Part shown: positions 14,105 through 62,023 of the stretch, piece by piece
Layout: every line of letters starts with the position of its first letter
How positions within the stretch are numbered: position 1 is the stretch's first letter
Origin: a phage
Length of the DNA stretch: 64,000 nt
Reading direction: 5' to 3' (one strand)
NCBI GenBank assembly: GCA_027337125.1
Contig: GCA_027337125.1_3057.1
Notes under the pieces: model-generated
The model's input: only the letters and a program-made list of their open reading frames with translations
The model's database searches: none
What the model was told of the DNA's origin: nothing
Program-made: the position numbers and the translations under genes

Positions 14105-14845
14105 ATGATTAATGATTCTTTGACAGTTGAAGAAATCCGTCTTCATTTGGGAATTGCATTAAAGGAAAAAGATTTCGTAATTGATAAAACTGGTGTTAAA
14201 ACTATTGAAATTATTGGCGCATCATTTGTAGCAGATGAACCGTTTATTTTTGGCGCTCTTAATGATGAATACATTCAGCGTGAACTTGAATGGTACAAGT
14301 CTCAAAGTCTGTTTGTTAAAGATATTCCAGGCGAAACGCCAAAGATTTGGCAACAGGTAGCATCTTCTAAAGGTGAAATTAACTCGAATTATGGTTGGGC
14401 TATCTGGTCAGAAGATAACTATGCCCAGTATGATATGTGTTTAGCTGAACTTGGTCAAAATCCTGATTCTCGCCGCGGTATCATGATTTATACTCGTCCA
14501 TCCATGCAGTTTGACTACAACAAAGATGGTATGTCAGATTTCATGTGTACGAATACAGTACAGTACCTGATTCGTGATAAGAAAGTCAATGCAGTAGTAA
14601 GCATGCGTTCAAATGACGTGGTCTTTGGATTCCGTAATGATTATGCATGGCAAAAATACGTACTAGATAAATTAGTATCTGATTTGAATGCAGGTGATTC
14701 AACTCGTCAGTATAAAGCAGGTTCCATTATATGGAATGTTGGAAGCCTTCATGTGTATTCTCGTCATTTTTATTTGGTTGACCATTGGTGGAAAACTGGC
14801 GAAACTCATATTGCGAAAAAAGATTATAACGGTGAGTGGAAATGA
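14105..14845 (+). CDS. 42: gp42, dCMP hydroxymethylase
   Basis: 246 aa; conserved position and length relative to T4 gp42. Confidence 0.85.
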   Translation: MINDSLTVEEIRLHLGIALKEKDFVIDKTGVKTIEIIGASFVADEPFIFGALNDEYIQRELEWYKSQSLFVKDIPGETPKIWQQVASSKGEINSNYGWAIWSEDNYAQYDMCLAELGQNPDSRRGIMIYTRPSMQFDYNKDGMSDFMCTNTVQYLIRDKKVNAVVSMRSNDVVFGFRNDYAWQKYVLDKLVSDLNAGDSTRQYKAGSIIWNVGSLHVYSRHFYLVDHWWKTGETHIAKKDYNGEWK

Positions 14846-15684
14846 TTCAATTCGTAATTCCAAGCTATCAACGTGTAGGGGCAGTTTCTGCCCTTGATAT
14901 GTTTCCGACTGATTATGAACCTCATATTGTAGTACGTAAACACGAAGAAAAAGCTTATTATGACGCTTATGGGTCTAGAGCTAAAATTATAACTATTCCT
15001 GATGATGTTAATGGAATTGCTGGAACTCGTAAAGCAATTACTGATATGTATGCAGGTCAACGAATCTGGATGATTGACGATGATACTACGATTCGTATGA
15101 GTTCAATACGAAAGAGAGACGATAAACGGCGCGTAGATAAAATTAATCAATTAACTCGTGAACAGTTCTATGAATTGATTCAATACGTTGAAGATGCCAT
15201 GGATTGCGGGTATTATCATGGCCATGCTCGTCTACCAATTTTTAAAATTACTTCATCTTGGGGTAATTATCGTGAAAACTCATATGGATTCACGAATACG
15301 TGGTATGACCTCGGAAAACTTACGACAGAACAAATTGGGTATGGAAAAATTGATTTATGCGAAGATATGTATGCATTTCTCAATTTAATTAATCAAGGTT
15401 ATCCGCATTTGGCCTTGTTCAAATATCTAGTTGTATCTGGAAAATCACACGCTCCCGGTGGGTGTAGTTCAATTCGTAGTAATTCTAAACATAATAGAGC
15501 GCTTGAGCAAATCAATAGAGAGTTTCCAGAGCAAGCTCGTTGGAAAACTTCTAATATTGAAAAACGAAAATCGTTGGGTGAAGAAGATGAACCATTAAAG
15601 GTTCTTCGCATGTGTGTTTCGCGTAAAGAAAAATCAGAAGCATTTCATAAGTTTAATGCTATTCATCCAATAGCAGTTGATTAA
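14836..15684 (+). CDS. GT-A-fold glycosyltransferase at the locus where T4 has beta-gt; possibly the T2/T6-type beta-glucosyl-HMC alpha-glucosyltransferase
   Basis: 282 aa; DxD motif (IWMIDDDTTI); no resemblance to recalled T4 beta-gt; start probably the ATG at about 14842 overlapping the gp42 stop. Confidence 0.55.
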   Translation: MEMIQFVIPSYQRVGAVSALDMFPTDYEPHIVVRKHEEKAYYDAYGSRAKIITIPDDVNGIAGTRKAITDMYAGQRIWMIDDDTTIRMSSIRKRDDKRRVDKINQLTREQFYELIQYVEDAMDCGYYHGHARLPIFKITSSWGNYRENSYGFTNTWYDLGKLTTEQIGYGKIDLCEDMYAFLNLINQGYPHLALFKYLVVSGKSHAPGGCSSIRSNSKHNRALEQINREFPEQARWKTSNIEKRKSLGEEDEPLKVLRMCVSRKEKSEAFHKFNAIHPIAVD

Positions 15685-15761
15685 TGCCTAAATTTATTGT
15701 GTTATAATTACTCTATCTTTAACCAGTGAGGAAAATATAATGATGCCTATGGAAAAAATGA

Positions 15762-16943
15762 ATGTCTATTGCAGATTTAAAATCCCGTTTGATTAAAGCT
15801 TCCACTTCTAAAATGACTGCTGAACTGACTACATCTAAATTCTTTAATGAAAAGGATGTAATTCGTACAAAAATCCCAATGCTTAATATTGCTATTTCTG
15901 GTGCGATTGATGGCGGTATGCAGTCTGGTTTAACTATTTTCGCAGGGCCTTCTAAACACTTTAAATCAAATATGTCTTTGACTATGGTTGCGGCATATTT
16001 GAACAAATATCCTGATGCAGTTTGTCTATTCTATGATAGCGAATTTGGTATTACTCCAGCTTATTTGCGATCCATGGGAGTTGACCCGGAACGAGTAATT
16101 CATACGCCAATCCAGTCAGTTGAACAGCTAAAAATTGATATGGTGAATCAGCTTGAAGCTATTGAGCGCGGTGAAAAGGTTATTGTATTCATCGACTCAA
16201 TCGGTAATATGGCTTCTAAGAAAGAAACGGAAGATGCCCTGAATGAAAAATCTGTGGCAGATATGACTCGTGCTAAATCACTGAAGTCATTATTCCGTAT
16301 TGTTACTCCTTACTTTAGCATTAAAAATATTCCGTGTGTTGCGGTTAACCATACAATTGAAACAATTGAAATGTTTAGTAAAACCGTGATGACAGGTGGT
16401 ACAGGCGTAATGTATTCGGCTGATACCGTATTCATTATCGGTAAACGTCAGATTAAAGATGGTTCTGATCTTCAGGGGTATCAATTTGTTCTAAATGTAG
16501 AAAAATCTCGTACTGTTAAAGAAAAAAGTAAATTCTTTATTGATGTTAAATTTGACGGTGGTATCGATCCTTATTCTGGATTGTTAGATATGGCTCTAGA
16601 ATTAGGATTTGTAGTAAAACCTAAAAATGGCTGGTATGCTCGTGAATTTCTTGACGAAGAAACCGGCGAGATGATTCGCGAAGAAAAATCTTGGCGTGCA
16701 AAAGATACCAACTGCACTACATTCTGGGGTCCTTTATTTAAGCATCAACCATTCCGAGATGCTATTAAACGTGCTTATCAGTTAGGTGCTATTGATAGTA
16801 ATGAAATTGTTGAAGCTGAAGTTGATGAATTGATTAACTCAAAGGTTGAAAAATTTAAATCTCCAGAAAGTAAAAGTAAATCAGCTGCTGATTTAGAAAC
16901 TGACCTCGAGCAGTTAAGTGATATGGAAGAATTTAATGAGTAA
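15762..16943 (+). CDS. uvsX: UvsX, RecA-like recombinase
   Basis: 393 aa; Walker A GPSKHFKS; matches recalled T4 UvsX. Confidence 0.95.
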   Translation: MSIADLKSRLIKASTSKMTAELTTSKFFNEKDVIRTKIPMLNIAISGAIDGGMQSGLTIFAGPSKHFKSNMSLTMVAAYLNKYPDAVCLFYDSEFGITPAYLRSMGVDPERVIHTPIQSVEQLKIDMVNQLEAIERGEKVIVFIDSIGNMASKKETEDALNEKSVADMTRAKSLKSLFRIVTPYFSIKNIPCVAVNHTIETIEMFSKTVMTGGTGVMYSADTVFIIGKRQIKDGSDLQGYQFVLNVEKSRTVKEKSKFFIDVKFDGGIDPYSGLLDMALELGFVVKPKNGWYAREFLDEETGEMIREEKSWRAKDTNCTTFWGPLFKHQPFRDAIKRAYQLGAIDSNEIVEAEVDELINSKVEKFKSPESKSKSAADLETDLEQLSDMEEFNE

Positions 16944-21385: not shown

Positions 21386-22725
<1,340 letters not shown>

Positions 22726-22785: not shown

Positions 22786-23304
22786 ATGGCATACTTTAAT
22801 GAATGTTCACAACTGATTGAAGGCGCTGATAAAGCTCAAAATGAATACTGGGATATTCTCGGTGATGAAAAAGACCCGCTGCAGGTTATGCTTGATATGC
22901 AGAAATCTTTACAGGTTCGTTTAGCTAAAGATAAACCTGAATATAACCGTCATCCTGATGATTTGGCTACTGCAGGTGAAGTTGTTGATTGGCTACGTAA
23001 TCAGAAAGATTATATTGACGATGAATTCCGCGAACTTCTGACTTCTCTTGGCGGTATGAGCAATGGTGAAAAAGATGCATCTGCTGTATGGAAGCCTTGG
23101 AAAGCTCAACATGGTGAACGCCGTGAAACTCTAATTACTGATTTGTCTCCACAAGACCAGTTGGAAATTAAATTCGAAATGATTGATATTCTTCATTTCG
23201 TTCTGAACATGTTCCAAGGTCTCGGCCTTACAGCTGAAGAAATCTTTAAACTTTATTATCTGAAAAATGCTGAAAACTTCGCGCGTCAAGACCGAGGTTA
23301 TTAA
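22786..23304 (+). CDS. 56: gp56, dCTPase/dUTPase (dCTP pyrophosphatase)
   Basis: Track ORF starts at 22771; ATG at 22786 after GGAAA RBS gives MAYFNEC..., similar to recalled T4 gp56. Confidence 0.85.
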   Translation: MAYFNECSQLIEGADKAQNEYWDILGDEKDPLQVMLDMQKSLQVRLAKDKPEYNRHPDDLATAGEVVDWLRNQKDYIDDEFRELLTSLGGMSNGEKDASAVWKPWKAQHGERRETLITDLSPQDQLEIKFEMIDILHFVLNMFQGLGLTAEEIFKLYYLKNAENFARQDRGY

Positions 23305-23348
23305 TGGCTCGTTTATTTAAACGACGACTTAAAAGCCGTGAGAATTAT

Positions 23349-23356
23349 TATAAATA
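23349..23356 (+). promoter_or_regulatory. late promoter TATAAATA for soc
   Basis: Exact gp55-type late promoter consensus about 30 bp upstream of the soc start. Confidence 0.7.
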
Positions 23357-34264: not shown

Positions 34265-34316
34265 AGCTTTATGATTACCGGAGTATAATATTCCCGAAAC
34301 CAAACGAGGATAAGTG

Positions 34317-36134
34317 ATGATTAAGAATGAAATTAAAATTCTGAGCGATATTGAACATATCAAAAAGCGTAGCGGCATGTACATTGGTTCTTCTGCTAAT
34401 GAAATGCATGAGCGCTTTCTGTTTGGTAAATGGGAAAGTGTTCAGTATGTACCTGGTCTTGTTAAGCTTATTGATGAAATTATCGATAACTCAGTAGATG
34501 AAGGTATTCGTACTAAGTTTAAATTCGCGAATAAAATTAATGTTACTATTAAAAACAATCAAGTAACAGTTGAAGATAACGGTCGTGGTATTCCACAAGC
34601 GATGGTTAAAACACCTACTGGTGAAGAAATTCCTGGTCCTGTTGCTGCCTGGACTATTCCAAAAGCAGGTGGTAACTTCGGTGATGATAAAGAACGCGTC
34701 ACTGGCGGTATGAACGGTGTTGGTTCTAGTTTAACTAACATTTTTTCTGTGATGTTTGTCGGTGAAACTGGCGACGGTCAAAATAATATTGTAGTTCGTT
34801 GTTCAAATGGCATGGAAAATAAATCATGGGAAACTATTCCTGGAAAATGGAAGGGAACACGTGTTACTTTCATTCCTGATTTTATGTCATTTGAAACTAA
34901 TGAGCTATCTCAAGTTTATCTTGACATTACATTAGATCGCCTCCAGACACTTGCAGTAGTTTATCCTGATATTCAATTTACCTTTAATGGTAAAAAGGTT
35001 CAGGGTAATTTTAAGAAATATGCACGCCAATATGATGAGCATGCTATCGTTCAAGAACAGGAAAATTGCTCTATTGCGGTTGGTCGTTCACCGGATGGTT
35101 TTCGTCAATTAACATACGTCAATAACATTCATACTAAGAATGGTGGTCATCACATTGACTGTGTTATGGATGATATTTGTGAAGACCTTATTCCACAAAT
35201 CAAACGTAAGTTCAAAATTGATGTAACTAAAGCACGTGTTAAAGAATGTTTGACTATCGTTATGTTTGTCCGTGATATGAAAAACATGCGATTTGATTCT
35301 CAAACTAAAGAGCGTTTGACTTCTCCATTTGGTGAAATTCGTAGTCATATTCAGCTTGATGCTAAAAAGATTTCACGTGCTATTTTAAATAATGAAGCAA
35401 TTTTAATGCCAATTATTGAAGCTGCTTTGGCTCGTAAATTGGCGGCAGAAAAAGCAGCAGAAACTAAAGCAGCTAAAAAGGCTTCTAAAGCTAAGGTTCA
35501 TAAACATATTAAAGCGAATCTTTGTGGTAAAGATGCTGACACTACTCTTTTCTTGACTGAGGGTGATTCGGCTATTGGGTATCTTATTGATGTTCGTGAT
35601 AAAGAACTTCATGGTGGTTATCCATTACGTGGTAAAGTTCTCAACAGCTGGGGTATGTCATATGCTGATATGCTTAAAAATAAAGAACTGTTTGATATTT
35701 GCGCAATCACTGGATTAGTTCTTGGTGAAAAAGCCGAAAACTTGAATTATCATAATATTGCTATTATGACTGACGCTGACCACGATGGTCTAGGAAGCAT
35801 TTATCCTTCTCTGCTCGGATTTTTTAGTAATTGGCCAGAACTGTTTGAACAAGGAAGAATTCGCTTTGTCAAAACTCCTGTAATCATCGCTCAGGTCGGT
35901 AAAAAACAAGAATGGTTTTATACAGTCGCTGAATATGAGAGTGCCAAAGATGCTCTACCTAAACATAGCATCCGTTATATTAAAGGACTTGGCTCTTTGG
36001 AAAAATCTGAATATCGTGAGATGATTCAAAACCCAGTATATGATGTTGTTAAACTTCCTGAGAATTGGAAAGAGCTTTTTGAAATGCTCATGGGAGATAA
36101 TGCTGACCTTCGTAAAGAATGGATGAGCCAGTAG
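34317..36134 (+). CDS. 39: gp39, topoisomerase II large subunit (GyrB-like ATPase plus TOPRIM), unsplit form
   Basis: 605 aa from the ATG at 34317; GHKL and TOPRIM motifs; continuous through the region where T4 is split into 39 and 60. Confidence 0.9.
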   Translation: MIKNEIKILSDIEHIKKRSGMYIGSSANEMHERFLFGKWESVQYVPGLVKLIDEIIDNSVDEGIRTKFKFANKINVTIKNNQVTVEDNGRGIPQAMVKTPTGEEIPGPVAAWTIPKAGGNFGDDKERVTGGMNGVGSSLTNIFSVMFVGETGDGQNNIVVRCSNGMENKSWETIPGKWKGTRVTFIPDFMSFETNELSQVYLDITLDRLQTLAVVYPDIQFTFNGKKVQGNFKKYARQYDEHAIVQEQENCSIAVGRSPDGFRQLTYVNNIHTKNGGHHIDCVMDDICEDLIPQIKRKFKIDVTKARVKECLTIVMFVRDMKNMRFDSQTKERLTSPFGEIRSHIQLDAKKISRAILNNEAILMPIIEAALARKLAAEKAAETKAAKKASKAKVHKHIKANLCGKDADTTLFLTEGDSAIGYLIDVRDKELHGGYPLRGKVLNSWGMSYADMLKNKELFDICAITGLVLGEKAENLNYHNIAIMTDADHDGLGSIYPSLLGFFSNWPELFEQGRIRFVKTPVIIAQVGKKQEWFYTVAEYESAKDALPKHSIRYIKGLGSLEKSEYREMIQNPVYDVVKLPENWKELFEMLMGDNADLRKEWMSQ

Positions 36135-59087: not shown

Positions 59088-59403
59088 TATTCGTCCGGTC
59101 GATGAGGCCGGTCTTTCAGAAAAAGAACTTTCAATTAAGAAAGAAAAGGATGAAATAGCAAAGCTTCTTGATCGTCAAGAAAATGGATTTATTATTGAAA
59201 AAATGGTAGAAGAGTTTGGAATGAGTTATCTTGAAGCTACAACAGCATTCTTAGAAGAAAATTCTATTCCTGAAACTCAATTTGCTAAATTTATTCCTTC
59301 GGGTATAATTGAAAAAATTCAGTCAGAAGCTATTGACGAAAATCTTTTACGTCCTTCTGTTGTTCGTTGTGAAAAAACTAATACATTAGATTTTCTACTA
59401 TGA
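59065..59403 (+). CDS. 33: gp33, late transcription co-activator
   Basis: Track ORF 59056-59403; ATG at 59065 gives 112 aa as in T4. Confidence 0.75.
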   Translation: MTQFSLNDIRPVDEAGLSEKELSIKKEKDEIAKLLDRQENGFIIEKMVEEFGMSYLEATTAFLEENSIPETQFAKFIPSGIIEKIQSEAIDENLLRPSVVRCEKTNTLDFLL

Positions 59404-60053
59404 TTAAACTCCGCATGCCTGCTGGTGGTGAAAGATACATTGATGGTAAATCAGTTTATAAATTATACTTAATGATAAAACAACATATGAATGGAAAGTA
59501 TGATGTAATTAAGTATAATTGGTGCATGCGGGTGTCTGATGCCGCTTATCAAAAGCGAAGGGATAAGTATTTTTTCCAGAAGTTATCAGAAAAATATAAA
59601 TTAAAGGAACTTGCTTTAATCTTTATAAGCAATCTTGTTGCTAACCAAGATGCTTGGATTGGTGACATCTCTGACGCTGATGCACTTGTGTTTTATCGTG
59701 AATATATCGGACGCTTAAAGCAAATTAAATTTAAGTTTGAAGAAGATATTCGCAACATTTATTATTTTAGTAAAAAAGTTGAAGTTTCTGCTTTTAAAGA
59801 AATCTTTGAGTATAATCCAAAAGTCCAATCAAGTTATATTTTTAAACTACTTCAATCGAATATAATTTCGTTTGAGACGTTTATCTTGCTTGATTCGTTT
59901 TTAAATATAATCGATAAACATGATGAACAGACTGATAATTTAGTCTGGAATAATTATTCTATAAAGTTAAAGGCTTATAGAAAAATTTTAAATATTGATT
60001 CACAGAAAGCTAAAAGTGTTTTTATTGAAACTGTGAAATCTTGTAAGTATTGA
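59400..60053 (+). CDS. 59: gp59, helicase loader
   Basis: 217 aa; MIKLRMPAGGERYIDGKSVYKLYLMIKQHMNGKYDVIKYNW... matches recalled T4 gp59. Confidence 0.9.
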   Translation: MIKLRMPAGGERYIDGKSVYKLYLMIKQHMNGKYDVIKYNWCMRVSDAAYQKRRDKYFFQKLSEKYKLKELALIFISNLVANQDAWIGDISDADALVFYREYIGRLKQIKFKFEEDIRNIYYFSKKVEVSAFKEIFEYNPKVQSSYIFKLLQSNIISFETFILLDSFLNIIDKHDEQTDNLVWNNYSIKLKAYRKILNIDSQKAKSVFIETVKSCKY

Positions 60054-60054
60054 T

Positions 60055-60687
60055 ATGAATATAGTATATTGGTTTACATTTGAAGACCGTGTCAAAAATA
60101 AGACTCCGCCATACTACTATATCGGTAGTAAATTAAATTGCTCATTTGAGAACGGAATAATATATGACTCTTCCGGAAAGGAATACTGGAGTTCGTGTAA
60201 ACAAAAAAGATTTTTGAATGCGGTAATGCTTCAAAAACCGAGCGTTAAAATAATTCAAATTGATGATGATTTGGATGTTATTGAAGCAGAGCGAAAATAC
60301 CAACTTGAAGTAAATGCCAGAGATAATCCAGACTATTTTAATCTGGTATATGCTGGCGGCGGATTTGGTGTGAGTGGTGAAACTCACCCAGCTAAAGACC
60401 CGGAAGTTAGAGAGCATATGAGATTGGCTAATTATATGAACCGTGACGATTTCAGACCTTGGAAAACATCACGAGCTAATATAGAGTCTTGGAAATTATC
60501 TCATATTGCTTACGAGAATTATGTGTTATTATTATCCTCTAATCTGTACGGTAAAACTCCTGGATGGCGAAGAGTTAAAGGTAATATAAATATAACTGAT
60601 ACAACTGCTAAATCGATGGTAAAGTATTTCAACTCAGGTTGGATACCTCTCGAAGACCCAGAGTATTGCAAATTATGCCAGCTATGA
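60055..60687 (+). CDS. GIY-YIG-like putative homing endonuclease (Seg-like, 210 aa)
   Basis: N-terminal IVY...(16 aa)...YYIGS then conserved-position E and N; occupies the 59-32 intergenic slot where T4 carries a seg gene. Confidence 0.45.
   Translation: MNIVYWFTFEDRVKNKTPPYYYIGSKLNCSFENGIIYDSSGKEYWSSCKQKRFLNAVMLQKPSVKIIQIDDDLDVIEAERKYQLEVNARDNPDYFNLVYAGGGFGVSGETHPAKDPEVREHMRLANYMNRDDFRPWKTSRANIESWKLSHIAYENYVLLLSSNLYGKTPGWRRVKGNINITDTTAKSMVKYFNSGWIPLEDPEYCKLCQL
60585..60592 (+). promoter_or_regulatory. candidate late promoter TATAAATA for gene 32
   Basis: Exact consensus about 150 bp upstream of the gp32 start, inside the 60055 ORF. Confidence 0.4.
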
Positions 60688-60741
60688 GGTAAAGTGTCAT
60701 AGCACCAACTGTTAATTAAATTAAGTTAAAAAGGAAATAAA
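60678..60741 (+). promoter_or_regulatory. gene 32 translational operator: pseudoknot-forming hairpin plus UUAAA/UUAAG repeats
   Basis: Stem GCUAUGA/UCAUAGC then UUAAUUAAAUUAAGUUAAAAAGGAAAUAAA before the ATG; corresponds to the known gp32 autoregulatory operator. Confidence 0.6.
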
Positions 60742-61647
60742 ATGTTTAAACGTAAATCTACTGCTGAACTTGCTGCGCAAATGGCTAAACTGAATGGCAA
60801 TAAAGGTTTTTCTTCTGAAGATAAAGGCGAGTGGAAACTGAAACTCGATAATGCGGGTAACGGTCAAGCAGTAATTCGTTTTCTTCCGTCTAAAAATGAT
60901 GAACAAGCACCATTCGCAATTCTTGTAAATCACGGTTTCAAGAAAAATGGTAAATGGTATATTGAAACATGTTCATCTACCCATGGTGATTACGATTCTT
61001 GCCCAGTATGTCAATACATCAGTAAAAATGATCTGTACAACACTGACAATAAAGAGTACAGTCTTGTTAAACGTAAAACTTCTTACTGGGCTAACATTCT
61101 TGTTGTAAAAGACCCAGCTGCTCCAGAAAACGAAGGTAAAGTATTTAAATATCGTTTCGGTAAGAAAATCTGGGATAAAATCAACGCGATGATTGCGGTT
61201 GATGTTGAAATGGGCGAAACTCCGGTTGATGTAACTTGTCCGTGGGAAGGTGCTAACTTTGTACTGAAAGTTAAACAAGTTTCTGGTTTTAGTAACTACG
61301 ACGAATCTAAATTCCTGAATCAATCTGCGATTCCAAACATTGATGATGAATCTTTCCAGAAAGAACTGTTCGAACAAATGGTTGACCTTTCTGAAATGAC
61401 TTCTAAAGATAAATTCAAATCGTTTGAAGAACTGAGCACTAAATTCAGTCAAGTTATGGGAACTGCTGCTATGGGTGGTGCCGCAGCGACTGCCGCTAAG
61501 AAAGCTGATAAAGTTGCTGATGATTTGGATGCATTCAATGTTGATGACTTCAAAACAAAAACTGAAGATGATTTTATGAGCTCAAGCTCTGGCAGTTCAT
61601 CTAGTGCTGATGACACGGACCTGGATGACCTTTTGAATGACCTTTAA
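60742..61647 (+). CDS. 32: gp32, single-stranded DNA-binding protein
   Basis: 301 aa as in T4; zinc site [10 protein letters not shown]; acidic C-terminal tail. Confidence 0.95.
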
Positions 61648-61670
61648 TAGATTATATTACTAATTAATTG

Positions 61671-61696
61671 GGGACCCTAGAGGTCCCCTTTTTTAT
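61671..61696 (+). terminator. intrinsic terminator (GGGGACC-cuag-AGGUCCCC plus T-run) after gene 32
   Basis: Stem-loop followed by TTTTTT. Confidence 0.7.
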
Positions 61697-61719
61697 TTCA
61701 AAAATTTTTTCACAAAACG

Positions 61720-61749
61720 GTTTACAAGCATAAAGCTTTATGGTACTAT
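61720..61749 (+). promoter_or_regulatory. early promoter (GTTTACA, TACTAT), cassette copy 5
   Basis: Same cassette as 12998, 40622, 44425. Confidence 0.55.
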
Positions 61750-61792
61750 ACAACTATCGGCAATACTGCTGATGATTAAAGAGGAAAATAAT

Positions 61793-62023
61793 ATGGCTAA
61801 AGTTGATATTGACATCGTTGATTTTGAATATATTGAAGAAATTATTCGTAATCGTTATCCTGAACTTAGTATCACAAGTATTCACGATGACCCTAATTAT
61901 TGCAATTTTTCTATTGTCATTGAAGGTCCTCTTGAAGACCTCACCCGCTTTATGGCTAATGAATATTGTGATGGCATGGATGCCGAAGACGCAGAATTTT
62001 ACATGGGACTGATTGAACAATAA
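61793..62023 (+). CDS. hypothetical protein (76 aa)
   Basis: Track ORF 61772-62023; ATG at 61793 follows GAGGAAAA RBS. Confidence 0.5.

Follow-up and report, generated by a model that had tools for sequence, protein, structure and literature searches.

A segG gene between genes 59 and 32 of a T4-like phage that overlaps the control elements of gene 32

Phage T4 carries, between genes 32 and 59, a free-standing endonuclease gene of the GIY-YIG type, segG, which has been shown to be mobile and has its target in gene 32 (PMC2988022). The exclusion of T2L gene 32 that is seen in crosses of T4 with T2 is due to SegG (PMC2330249). The middle and late promoters of gene 32 are located within segG, an arrangement that favours the keeping of the endonuclease gene, and a promoter specific to segG is found in the 3' part of the gene upstream; in addition, processing of the segG-32 transcript by RNase E stabilises the gene 32 mRNA (PMC2988022). 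The operator of gene 32 begins with a 5' pseudoknot of ~28 nt, whose 5' part overlaps the segG reading frame, and continues for more than 40 nt in which UUAAA/UAAA repeats occur (PMC535899). Another close comparison is T4 SegF, which is likewise free-standing, cleaves an essential T2 gene in its vicinity and brings about marker exclusion there; however, it lies next to gene 56, has another target, and shows no significant sequence similarity to SegG. All the elements that are treated below, namely the exclusion of T2 gene 32, the embedded promoters and the pseudoknot overlap, are thus already known for T4, in work published from 1989 to 2010.

The DNA analysed here is a stretch of 64,000 nucleotides (termed the window), in which an open reading frame of 210 amino acids runs on the plus strand from an ATG at 60055 to 60687. 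The stop codon of gene 59 sits one base before this ATG, and a 54-nt spacer separates the end of the reading frame from the gene 32 ATG at 60742; the first-pass annotation had included this spacer and drawn the end at 60741. Megablast aligned the reading frame with T4 segG (NC_000866 147909-148541) over all 633 nt, with a nucleotide identity of 98.3%. The annotation of NC_000866 at the matched span is "SegG homing endonuclease, GIY-YIG family", that of the RB3 group "segG". The gene order rnh-dsbA-33-59-segG-32-frd.3 is that of T4, and the order 59-segG-32 is also that of RB3. The features of the locus are as follows.

59400 to 60053, plus strand: gene 59 (helicase loader), from the list of open reading frames and so annotated in T4 and RB3
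59888 to 59911, plus strand: GCTT-N14-TATAAT in the 3' part of gene 59, a candidate middle promoter of the MotA type; a T4-type middle promoter is annotated at the same offset in OL960581
60055 to 60687, plus strand: segG (formerly 32.1), gene of a free-standing GIY-YIG homing endonuclease, 210 codons plus stop, from T4 homology and PHROG 7504
60055 to 60360, plus strand: N-terminal catalytic domain, about residues 1-102, with IVY (3-5), YIG (22-24), Glu79 and Asn96
60385 to 60684, plus strand: C-terminal helical domain, about residues 111-210, presumed to bind DNA
60585 to 60592, plus strand: TATAAATA, T4-type late promoter for gene 32 inside segG, from T4 homology and the annotation of OL960581
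60676 to 60703, plus strand: pseudoknot of the gene 32 mRNA, nucleation site of the translational operator, UGCCAGCUAUGAGGUAAAGUGUCAUAGC, from its base pairs and its identity to T4
60704 to 60741, plus strand: unstructured, A/U-rich remainder of the operator, containing the ribosome-binding site and UUAAA/UAAA repeats, from the sequence and PMC535899
60742 to 61647, plus strand: gene 32 (ssDNA-binding protein), from the list of open reading frames
60793 to 61033, plus strand: uniformly T4-type tract in the 5' third of gene 32, contiguous with segG, from the typing of informative sites
61670 to 61697, plus strand: strong intrinsic terminator downstream of gene 32, formed by a 7-bp G+C-rich stem and a T run behind it

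The encoded protein shares 208 of its 210 residues with T4 SegG (NP_049855), from which it differs by L57V and E206K. Of the 11 nucleotide differences from T4 segG, nine are synonymous, a silent majority that is consistent with purifying selection. A protein that is 100% identical was found by tblastn in Escherichia phage 121/2022-2B, and an end-to-end match (E 1e-133) links the protein to PHROG 7504, "homing endonuclease". The upstream neighbour gp59 differs from T4 gp59 by a single amino acid. Over the 25 kb around the locus, no phage record exceeds ~94.5% identity. Near-identity to a characterised gene led us to reject a chance open reading frame. Altogether, there is little doubt that the reading frame represents segG in a T4-like phage of the genus Tequatrovirus and encodes a two-domain homing endonuclease with a T4-type mechanism, whose activity is assigned by analogy with T4. 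We infer cleavage activity, homing and promoter use of the present allele (V57, K206) from the experiments on T4. The first-pass annotation had described a GIY-YIG-like reading frame in the slot of the free-standing T4 homing endonuclease between genes 59 and 32; both points were correct, whereas the identity of the gene with the already characterised segG had been missed.

The signals that control gene 32 lie in and around segG. The last base of the octamer TATAAATA inside segG is 150 nt upstream of the gene 32 ATG, and none of the nucleotide differences from T4 falls in this site, which is identical in T4. At the same offset, a T4-type late promoter is annotated in OL960581. With 6 occurrences against 9.6 expected, the octamer shows no enrichment in the window, so its meaning as a late promoter rests on the homology to T4, not on statistics. 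Judged by its position, the candidate middle promoter within gene 59 could transcribe both segG and gene 32. The pseudoknot at the end of segG is of the H-type and spans 28 nt, with a stem 1 of four pairs (60676-79 with 60688-91) and a stem 2 of seven pairs (60681-87 with 60697-703), and all 11 pairs are standard. Its first 12 nt are the segG codons 208-210 and the UGA stop codon (60685-87). The pseudoknot sequence is identical to that of T4, whereas the A/U-rich tail shows two differences: at 60725 an A is changed to G, so that one UUAAA repeat reads UUAAG, and the stretch before the ATG is one A shorter. The locus therefore shares with T4 the length of the protein, its position between genes 59 and 32, the embedded octamer and the overlap of the pseudoknot with the stop codon, and differs from it in two residues of SegG and in the operator tail. 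A late promoter within the reading frame, a gene 32 operator behind it and the resulting intertwining of endonuclease and gene 32 signals had all been proposed in the first-pass annotation; each of them was found, with the pseudoknot reaching also into the last three codons and the stop codon, and each had been published for T4.

Several further observations concern the same segment. Phages differ in how many AAATT/UUAAA repeats their gene 32 operator contains (window 60712-60741): T2 and PEC04 have fewer than T4, and SG1 has more. The G-to-A change at 60670, which gives rise to E206K, is located 72 nt upstream of the gene 32 ATG, and the downstream AAUUA motif is intact; we take the mapped site at which RNase E processes the segG-32 transcript of T4 to lie at about -71. 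On the minus strand of the pseudoknot region (60700-60672), a sigma-70-like match, ATGACA-17-CATAAT with an upstream TG, is present, in a region where the count of such matches equals the chance expectation. An Rfam scan of 59900-61800 returned chance snoRNA-like matches alone, and Rfam holds no family for the gene 32 pseudoknot.

The N-terminus of the protein reads MNIVYWFTFEDRVKNKTPPYYYIGS, in which IVY occupies residues 3-5 and YYIGS residues 21-25. We collected 29 homologues, none of which has a precomputed Pfam domain, and aligned 26 of them with the window protein. In this alignment of 27 sequences, the residues P19, Y22, I23, G24, S25, K26, C29, Y44, S47, E79, N96 and A100 are invariant, and Y5 reaches at least 90% conservation, whereas the positions of L57V and E206K are variable columns. 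An AlphaFold2 model built from the alignment (mean pLDDT of 90.7) consists of two domains joined by a linker of low confidence at residues 104-107. In the predicted N-terminal domain, IVY (3-5) sits on a strand of residues 2-8 and YIG (22-24) on a strand of residues 21-26, and E79 is placed on a helix of residues 75-85. A BLASTP alignment of SegG residues 67-120 against residues 64-112 of I-TevI paired E79 with the catalytic Glu75 and N96 with Asn90. As modelled, the protein has the GIY-YIG fold, and the GIY-YIG assignment holds at the level of this predicted fold and of the catalytic Glu and Asn.

The I-TevI catalytic domain (PDB 1LN0 / 1MK0) shares only 17% identity with SegG, and the two are distinguished by an extra helix in the first hairpin and by a β-hairpin insertion (residues 30-37) on the SegG side. 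The zinc finger, NUMOD3 and helix-turn-helix domains of I-TevI were not detected in SegG, and the C-terminal DNA-binding part is unrelated; moreover, SegG is free-standing, whereas I-TevI is intron-encoded. A search of the 27 homologues for the catalytic Arg gave no invariant residue that matches Arg27 of I-TevI. The best candidate is R52, which opens the helix of residues 51-59 in a K-R-F context similar to the K-R-W of I-TevI and is found in ~20 of the 27 homologues. At the place of the Arg27 helix of I-TevI, SegG has the β-hairpin of residues 30-37 and the invariant Y44...S47, and this insertion makes the Arg equivalent in SegG uncertain. Visual comparison suggests a resemblance between Y44...S47 and Y-M-G-S-G, a motif invariant in SegA-F. 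A tentative proposal, which we hold to be rather unlikely, is that the SegG branch has a rearranged GIY-YIG active site, in which R52 or K26 would take the role of the Arg. The first-pass annotation had made its reading depend on the catalytic Arg, Glu and Asn; Glu79 and Asn96 are in place, but the Arg lacks an invariant counterpart.

Searches with profiles and structures gave a less favourable picture, and they bear on a reading in which the N-terminal domain is not GIY-YIG, the IVY...YIG match is coincidental, and the domain has another chemistry or binds DNA alone. No sequence HMM detects GIY-YIG in the protein, as Pfam and NCBIfam scans returned zero families even at E-values up to 10 (PF01541 / PF19835 not matched). 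In a control scan, however, I-TevI and SegA-E matched GIY-YIG and/or SegE_GIY-YIG, but SegF gave zero matches. As SegF is an experimentally proven GIY-YIG homing enzyme, and like SegG is missed by Pfam, the models are insensitive to the SegG branch and the Pfam negative of SegG is uninformative. The alignment to I-TevI and the Seg proteins that the first-pass annotation had suggested yielded the BLASTP pairing of E79 and N96, whereas the profile-profile comparisons were not significant. In hhalign, the family alignment scored a very low probability of 1.7% against I-TevI, with only the C-terminal parts aligned, and 3.3% against SegA-F, though here YIG, Glu, Asn and GG lined up. Foldseek placed I-TevI at the top of its matches, yet without significance (E 1.4), and a PDB sequence search with the protein gave nothing relevant, noise alone. 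With the modelled fold and the invariant Glu and Asn set beside these scores, we regard a domain other than GIY-YIG as extremely improbable and keep the GIY-YIG assignment.

The other reading to be weighed is that of a decayed or domesticated segG, which no longer cuts and is kept for the gene 32 promoters and the half pseudoknot in its DNA. The embedded late promoter and the pseudoknot overlap would indeed make this segment hard to lose whatever the enzyme does, but the reading frame is intact, and of its 11 differences from T4 nine are silent. Decay might also be read from the two substitutions relative to T4 SegG; both, however, fall in variable columns, every family-invariant residue is kept, and the same protein occurs in another phage. 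The missing Pfam/NCBIfam match and the lack of a clearly conserved catalytic Arg can be counted in favour of an inactive enzyme, yet experimental activity is reported for the near-identical T4 protein (PMC2988022, PMC2330249). Finally, at least one relative, PEC04, has a segG that is annotated as a shortened CDS. We therefore judge decay or domestication of the window gene to be very unlikely, and an active segG of the T4 type remains our preferred reading. The PEC04 locus itself (1273-1734) has its segG CDS annotated at 462 nt though the DNA matches the full gene, and may represent a frameshifted or decaying copy.

The homologues of SegG differ in how much of the protein they match. Full-length relatives at 39-59% identity again adjoin the helicase-loader gene. 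By contrast, several homologues match only the N-terminal ~110-120 residues, at ~50-55% identity, and have another C-terminal part. Some of these divergent C-terminal parts are zinc-finger-like, with a C-x-x-C...H-x-x-x-C pattern. The genes of these N-domain-only relatives are found at other loci of T4-like phage genomes, for example adjoining gene 49 or rpbA. One catalytic module combined with exchangeable DNA-binding modules is the usual arrangement of GIY-YIG homing enzymes.

Comparison of the window with T4 by BLASTN showed that four other homing-endonuclease insertions of T4 are missing. In place of the T4 mobB, the window has 24 bp (about 2235-2260), and T4 beta-gt together with segA is replaced by a different segment of ~950 bp (14827-15774), which holds a beta-glucosyl-HMC-alpha-glucosyltransferase gene at 14836-15684. 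In addition, T4 segF has no counterpart at 23267-23349, nor does 35734-35799 contain the mobA/60.1 block, which in T4 divides gene 39 from gene 60. Gene 39 is a single reading frame of 606 codons (34314-36134), which gives a full-length match to the topoisomerase large-subunit family, including the part that is gp60 in T4. Within the genome span covered by the window, segG is thus the only T4 homing-endonuclease insertion present. The T2-like features named in the first-pass annotation, an unsplit gene 39 and the lack of segA and segF, are all real, and mobB is absent as well; its suggestion of mosaic acquisition is supported by the absence of four other T4 insertions and by a T4-type tract that extends from gene 59 to nt 292 of gene 32. 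Between gene 61 and dam, a 186-codon reading frame (21386-21946) is absent from T4 and matches PHROG 8706, of unassigned function, over its full length. The segment 47907-51874, which covers the distal part of gene 37 and gene 38 (tail-fibre tip; assembly or adhesin gene), has no BLASTN similarity to T4, and this fits a different receptor-binding module.

Among phage records, segG was found by megablast in 142, all with at least 95% identity over the full length. A query made of the 59-32 junction with segG deleted matched 631 records, and in about 500 of these the match covered 80% or more of the query. The gene is therefore present in some close relatives and absent from others at one fixed site. 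T2 (MH751506) lacks segG and has a spacer of 99 bp between genes 59 and 32, in place of the 633-bp gene; homology between T2 and the window resumes at CCAGCUAUGAGG, inside the pseudoknot. The segG-less spacer of the T2 type shares with the window the flanking genes and the 3' half of the pseudoknot and operator, and it has its own late promoter TATAAATA just upstream of a variant pseudoknot. In this variant, stem 1 is UGACC/GGUCA and loop 2 is UACAUCG, compared to UGCC/GGUA and AAGUG in the type found in segG carriers. Our linkage sample comprised 14 phages, and the spacers were examined in the window and six relatives, all carriers, and in six segG-less phages. The T4-type pseudoknot is present in 7/7 carriers and the T2-type in 6/6 segG-less phages. 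Five of the six segG-less spacers are identical, and the sixth, from SG1, has extra AAATT repeats.

Sites that are informative between T4 and T2 showed a boundary within gene 32. From gene 59 through nt 292 of gene 32 (61033) the window is almost uniformly T4-type; after this point the sites are mixed, and they are T2-type over 61447-61593 (nt 706-852). At the protein level, gp32 differs from T4 gp32 by four amino acids, all C-terminal, three of which match T2. Much of this "T2-type" 3' half of gene 32 is, however, the common allele, and laboratory T4 is the outlier. From its position and its types of site, the tract 60793-61033 looks like a co-conversion tract. We take the SegG cut to lie roughly 330 bp from the insertion site. 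Codon 76 of gene 32 (60968-60969) is ACA (Thr) in 8/8 segG carriers and AAT/AAC (Asn) in five of the six non-carriers among the 14 phages, the exception being SG1, and this codon may be part of the polymorphism of the SegG target. That codon 76 marks the natural SegG-resistant and SegG-sensitive target alleles is a doubtful conjecture, for which we would give somewhat poor odds. In the 14 phages, segG did not prove to be strictly linked to a T4-type 5' part of gene 32: PEC04, ZJUN4 and SNUABM01 carry segG together with T2-type or mixed gene 32 sites, and SG1 is largely T4-type in gene 32 although it has no segG. With the linkage imperfect, the T4-type tract of the window could reflect ordinary recombination rather than homing. 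The overall pattern fits, without proving it, homing with co-conversion that was followed by ordinary recombination.

We propose that SegG acts as its T4 counterpart does: catalysis would reside in the N-terminal GIY-YIG domain, and the helical domain at the C-terminus presumably binds the DNA. When a segG-less relative takes part in a mixed infection, the enzyme would cut gene 32 of that relative, and the break would be repaired with the segG-carrying genome as the template. Such repair would copy segG and the adjoining gene 32 sequence into the recipient, and would be visible as marker exclusion and co-conversion; these steps are drawn from T4. The gene would be transcribed together with its neighbours from upstream promoters. 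It would also be hard to lose, as its coding sequence holds the late promoter that serves gene 32, an essential gene (and also, as published for T4, a middle promoter), and its last codons form the 5' strand of the pseudoknot operator. Since both the promoter and this strand lie inside segG, a clean deletion of segG would damage the expression and autoregulation of gene 32.

As the reading frame is segG, the annotation of T4 can be transferred to it, and the region 59-segG-32 of this phage can be annotated in this way with the late promoter, the pseudoknot operator and the terminator included. For biology the locus brings nothing new, and its mildly useful by-products are two: a natural segG in a genome without the other homing-endonuclease insertions of T4, and support from a predicted structure for the GIY-YIG fold in a protein that is invisible to Pfam.
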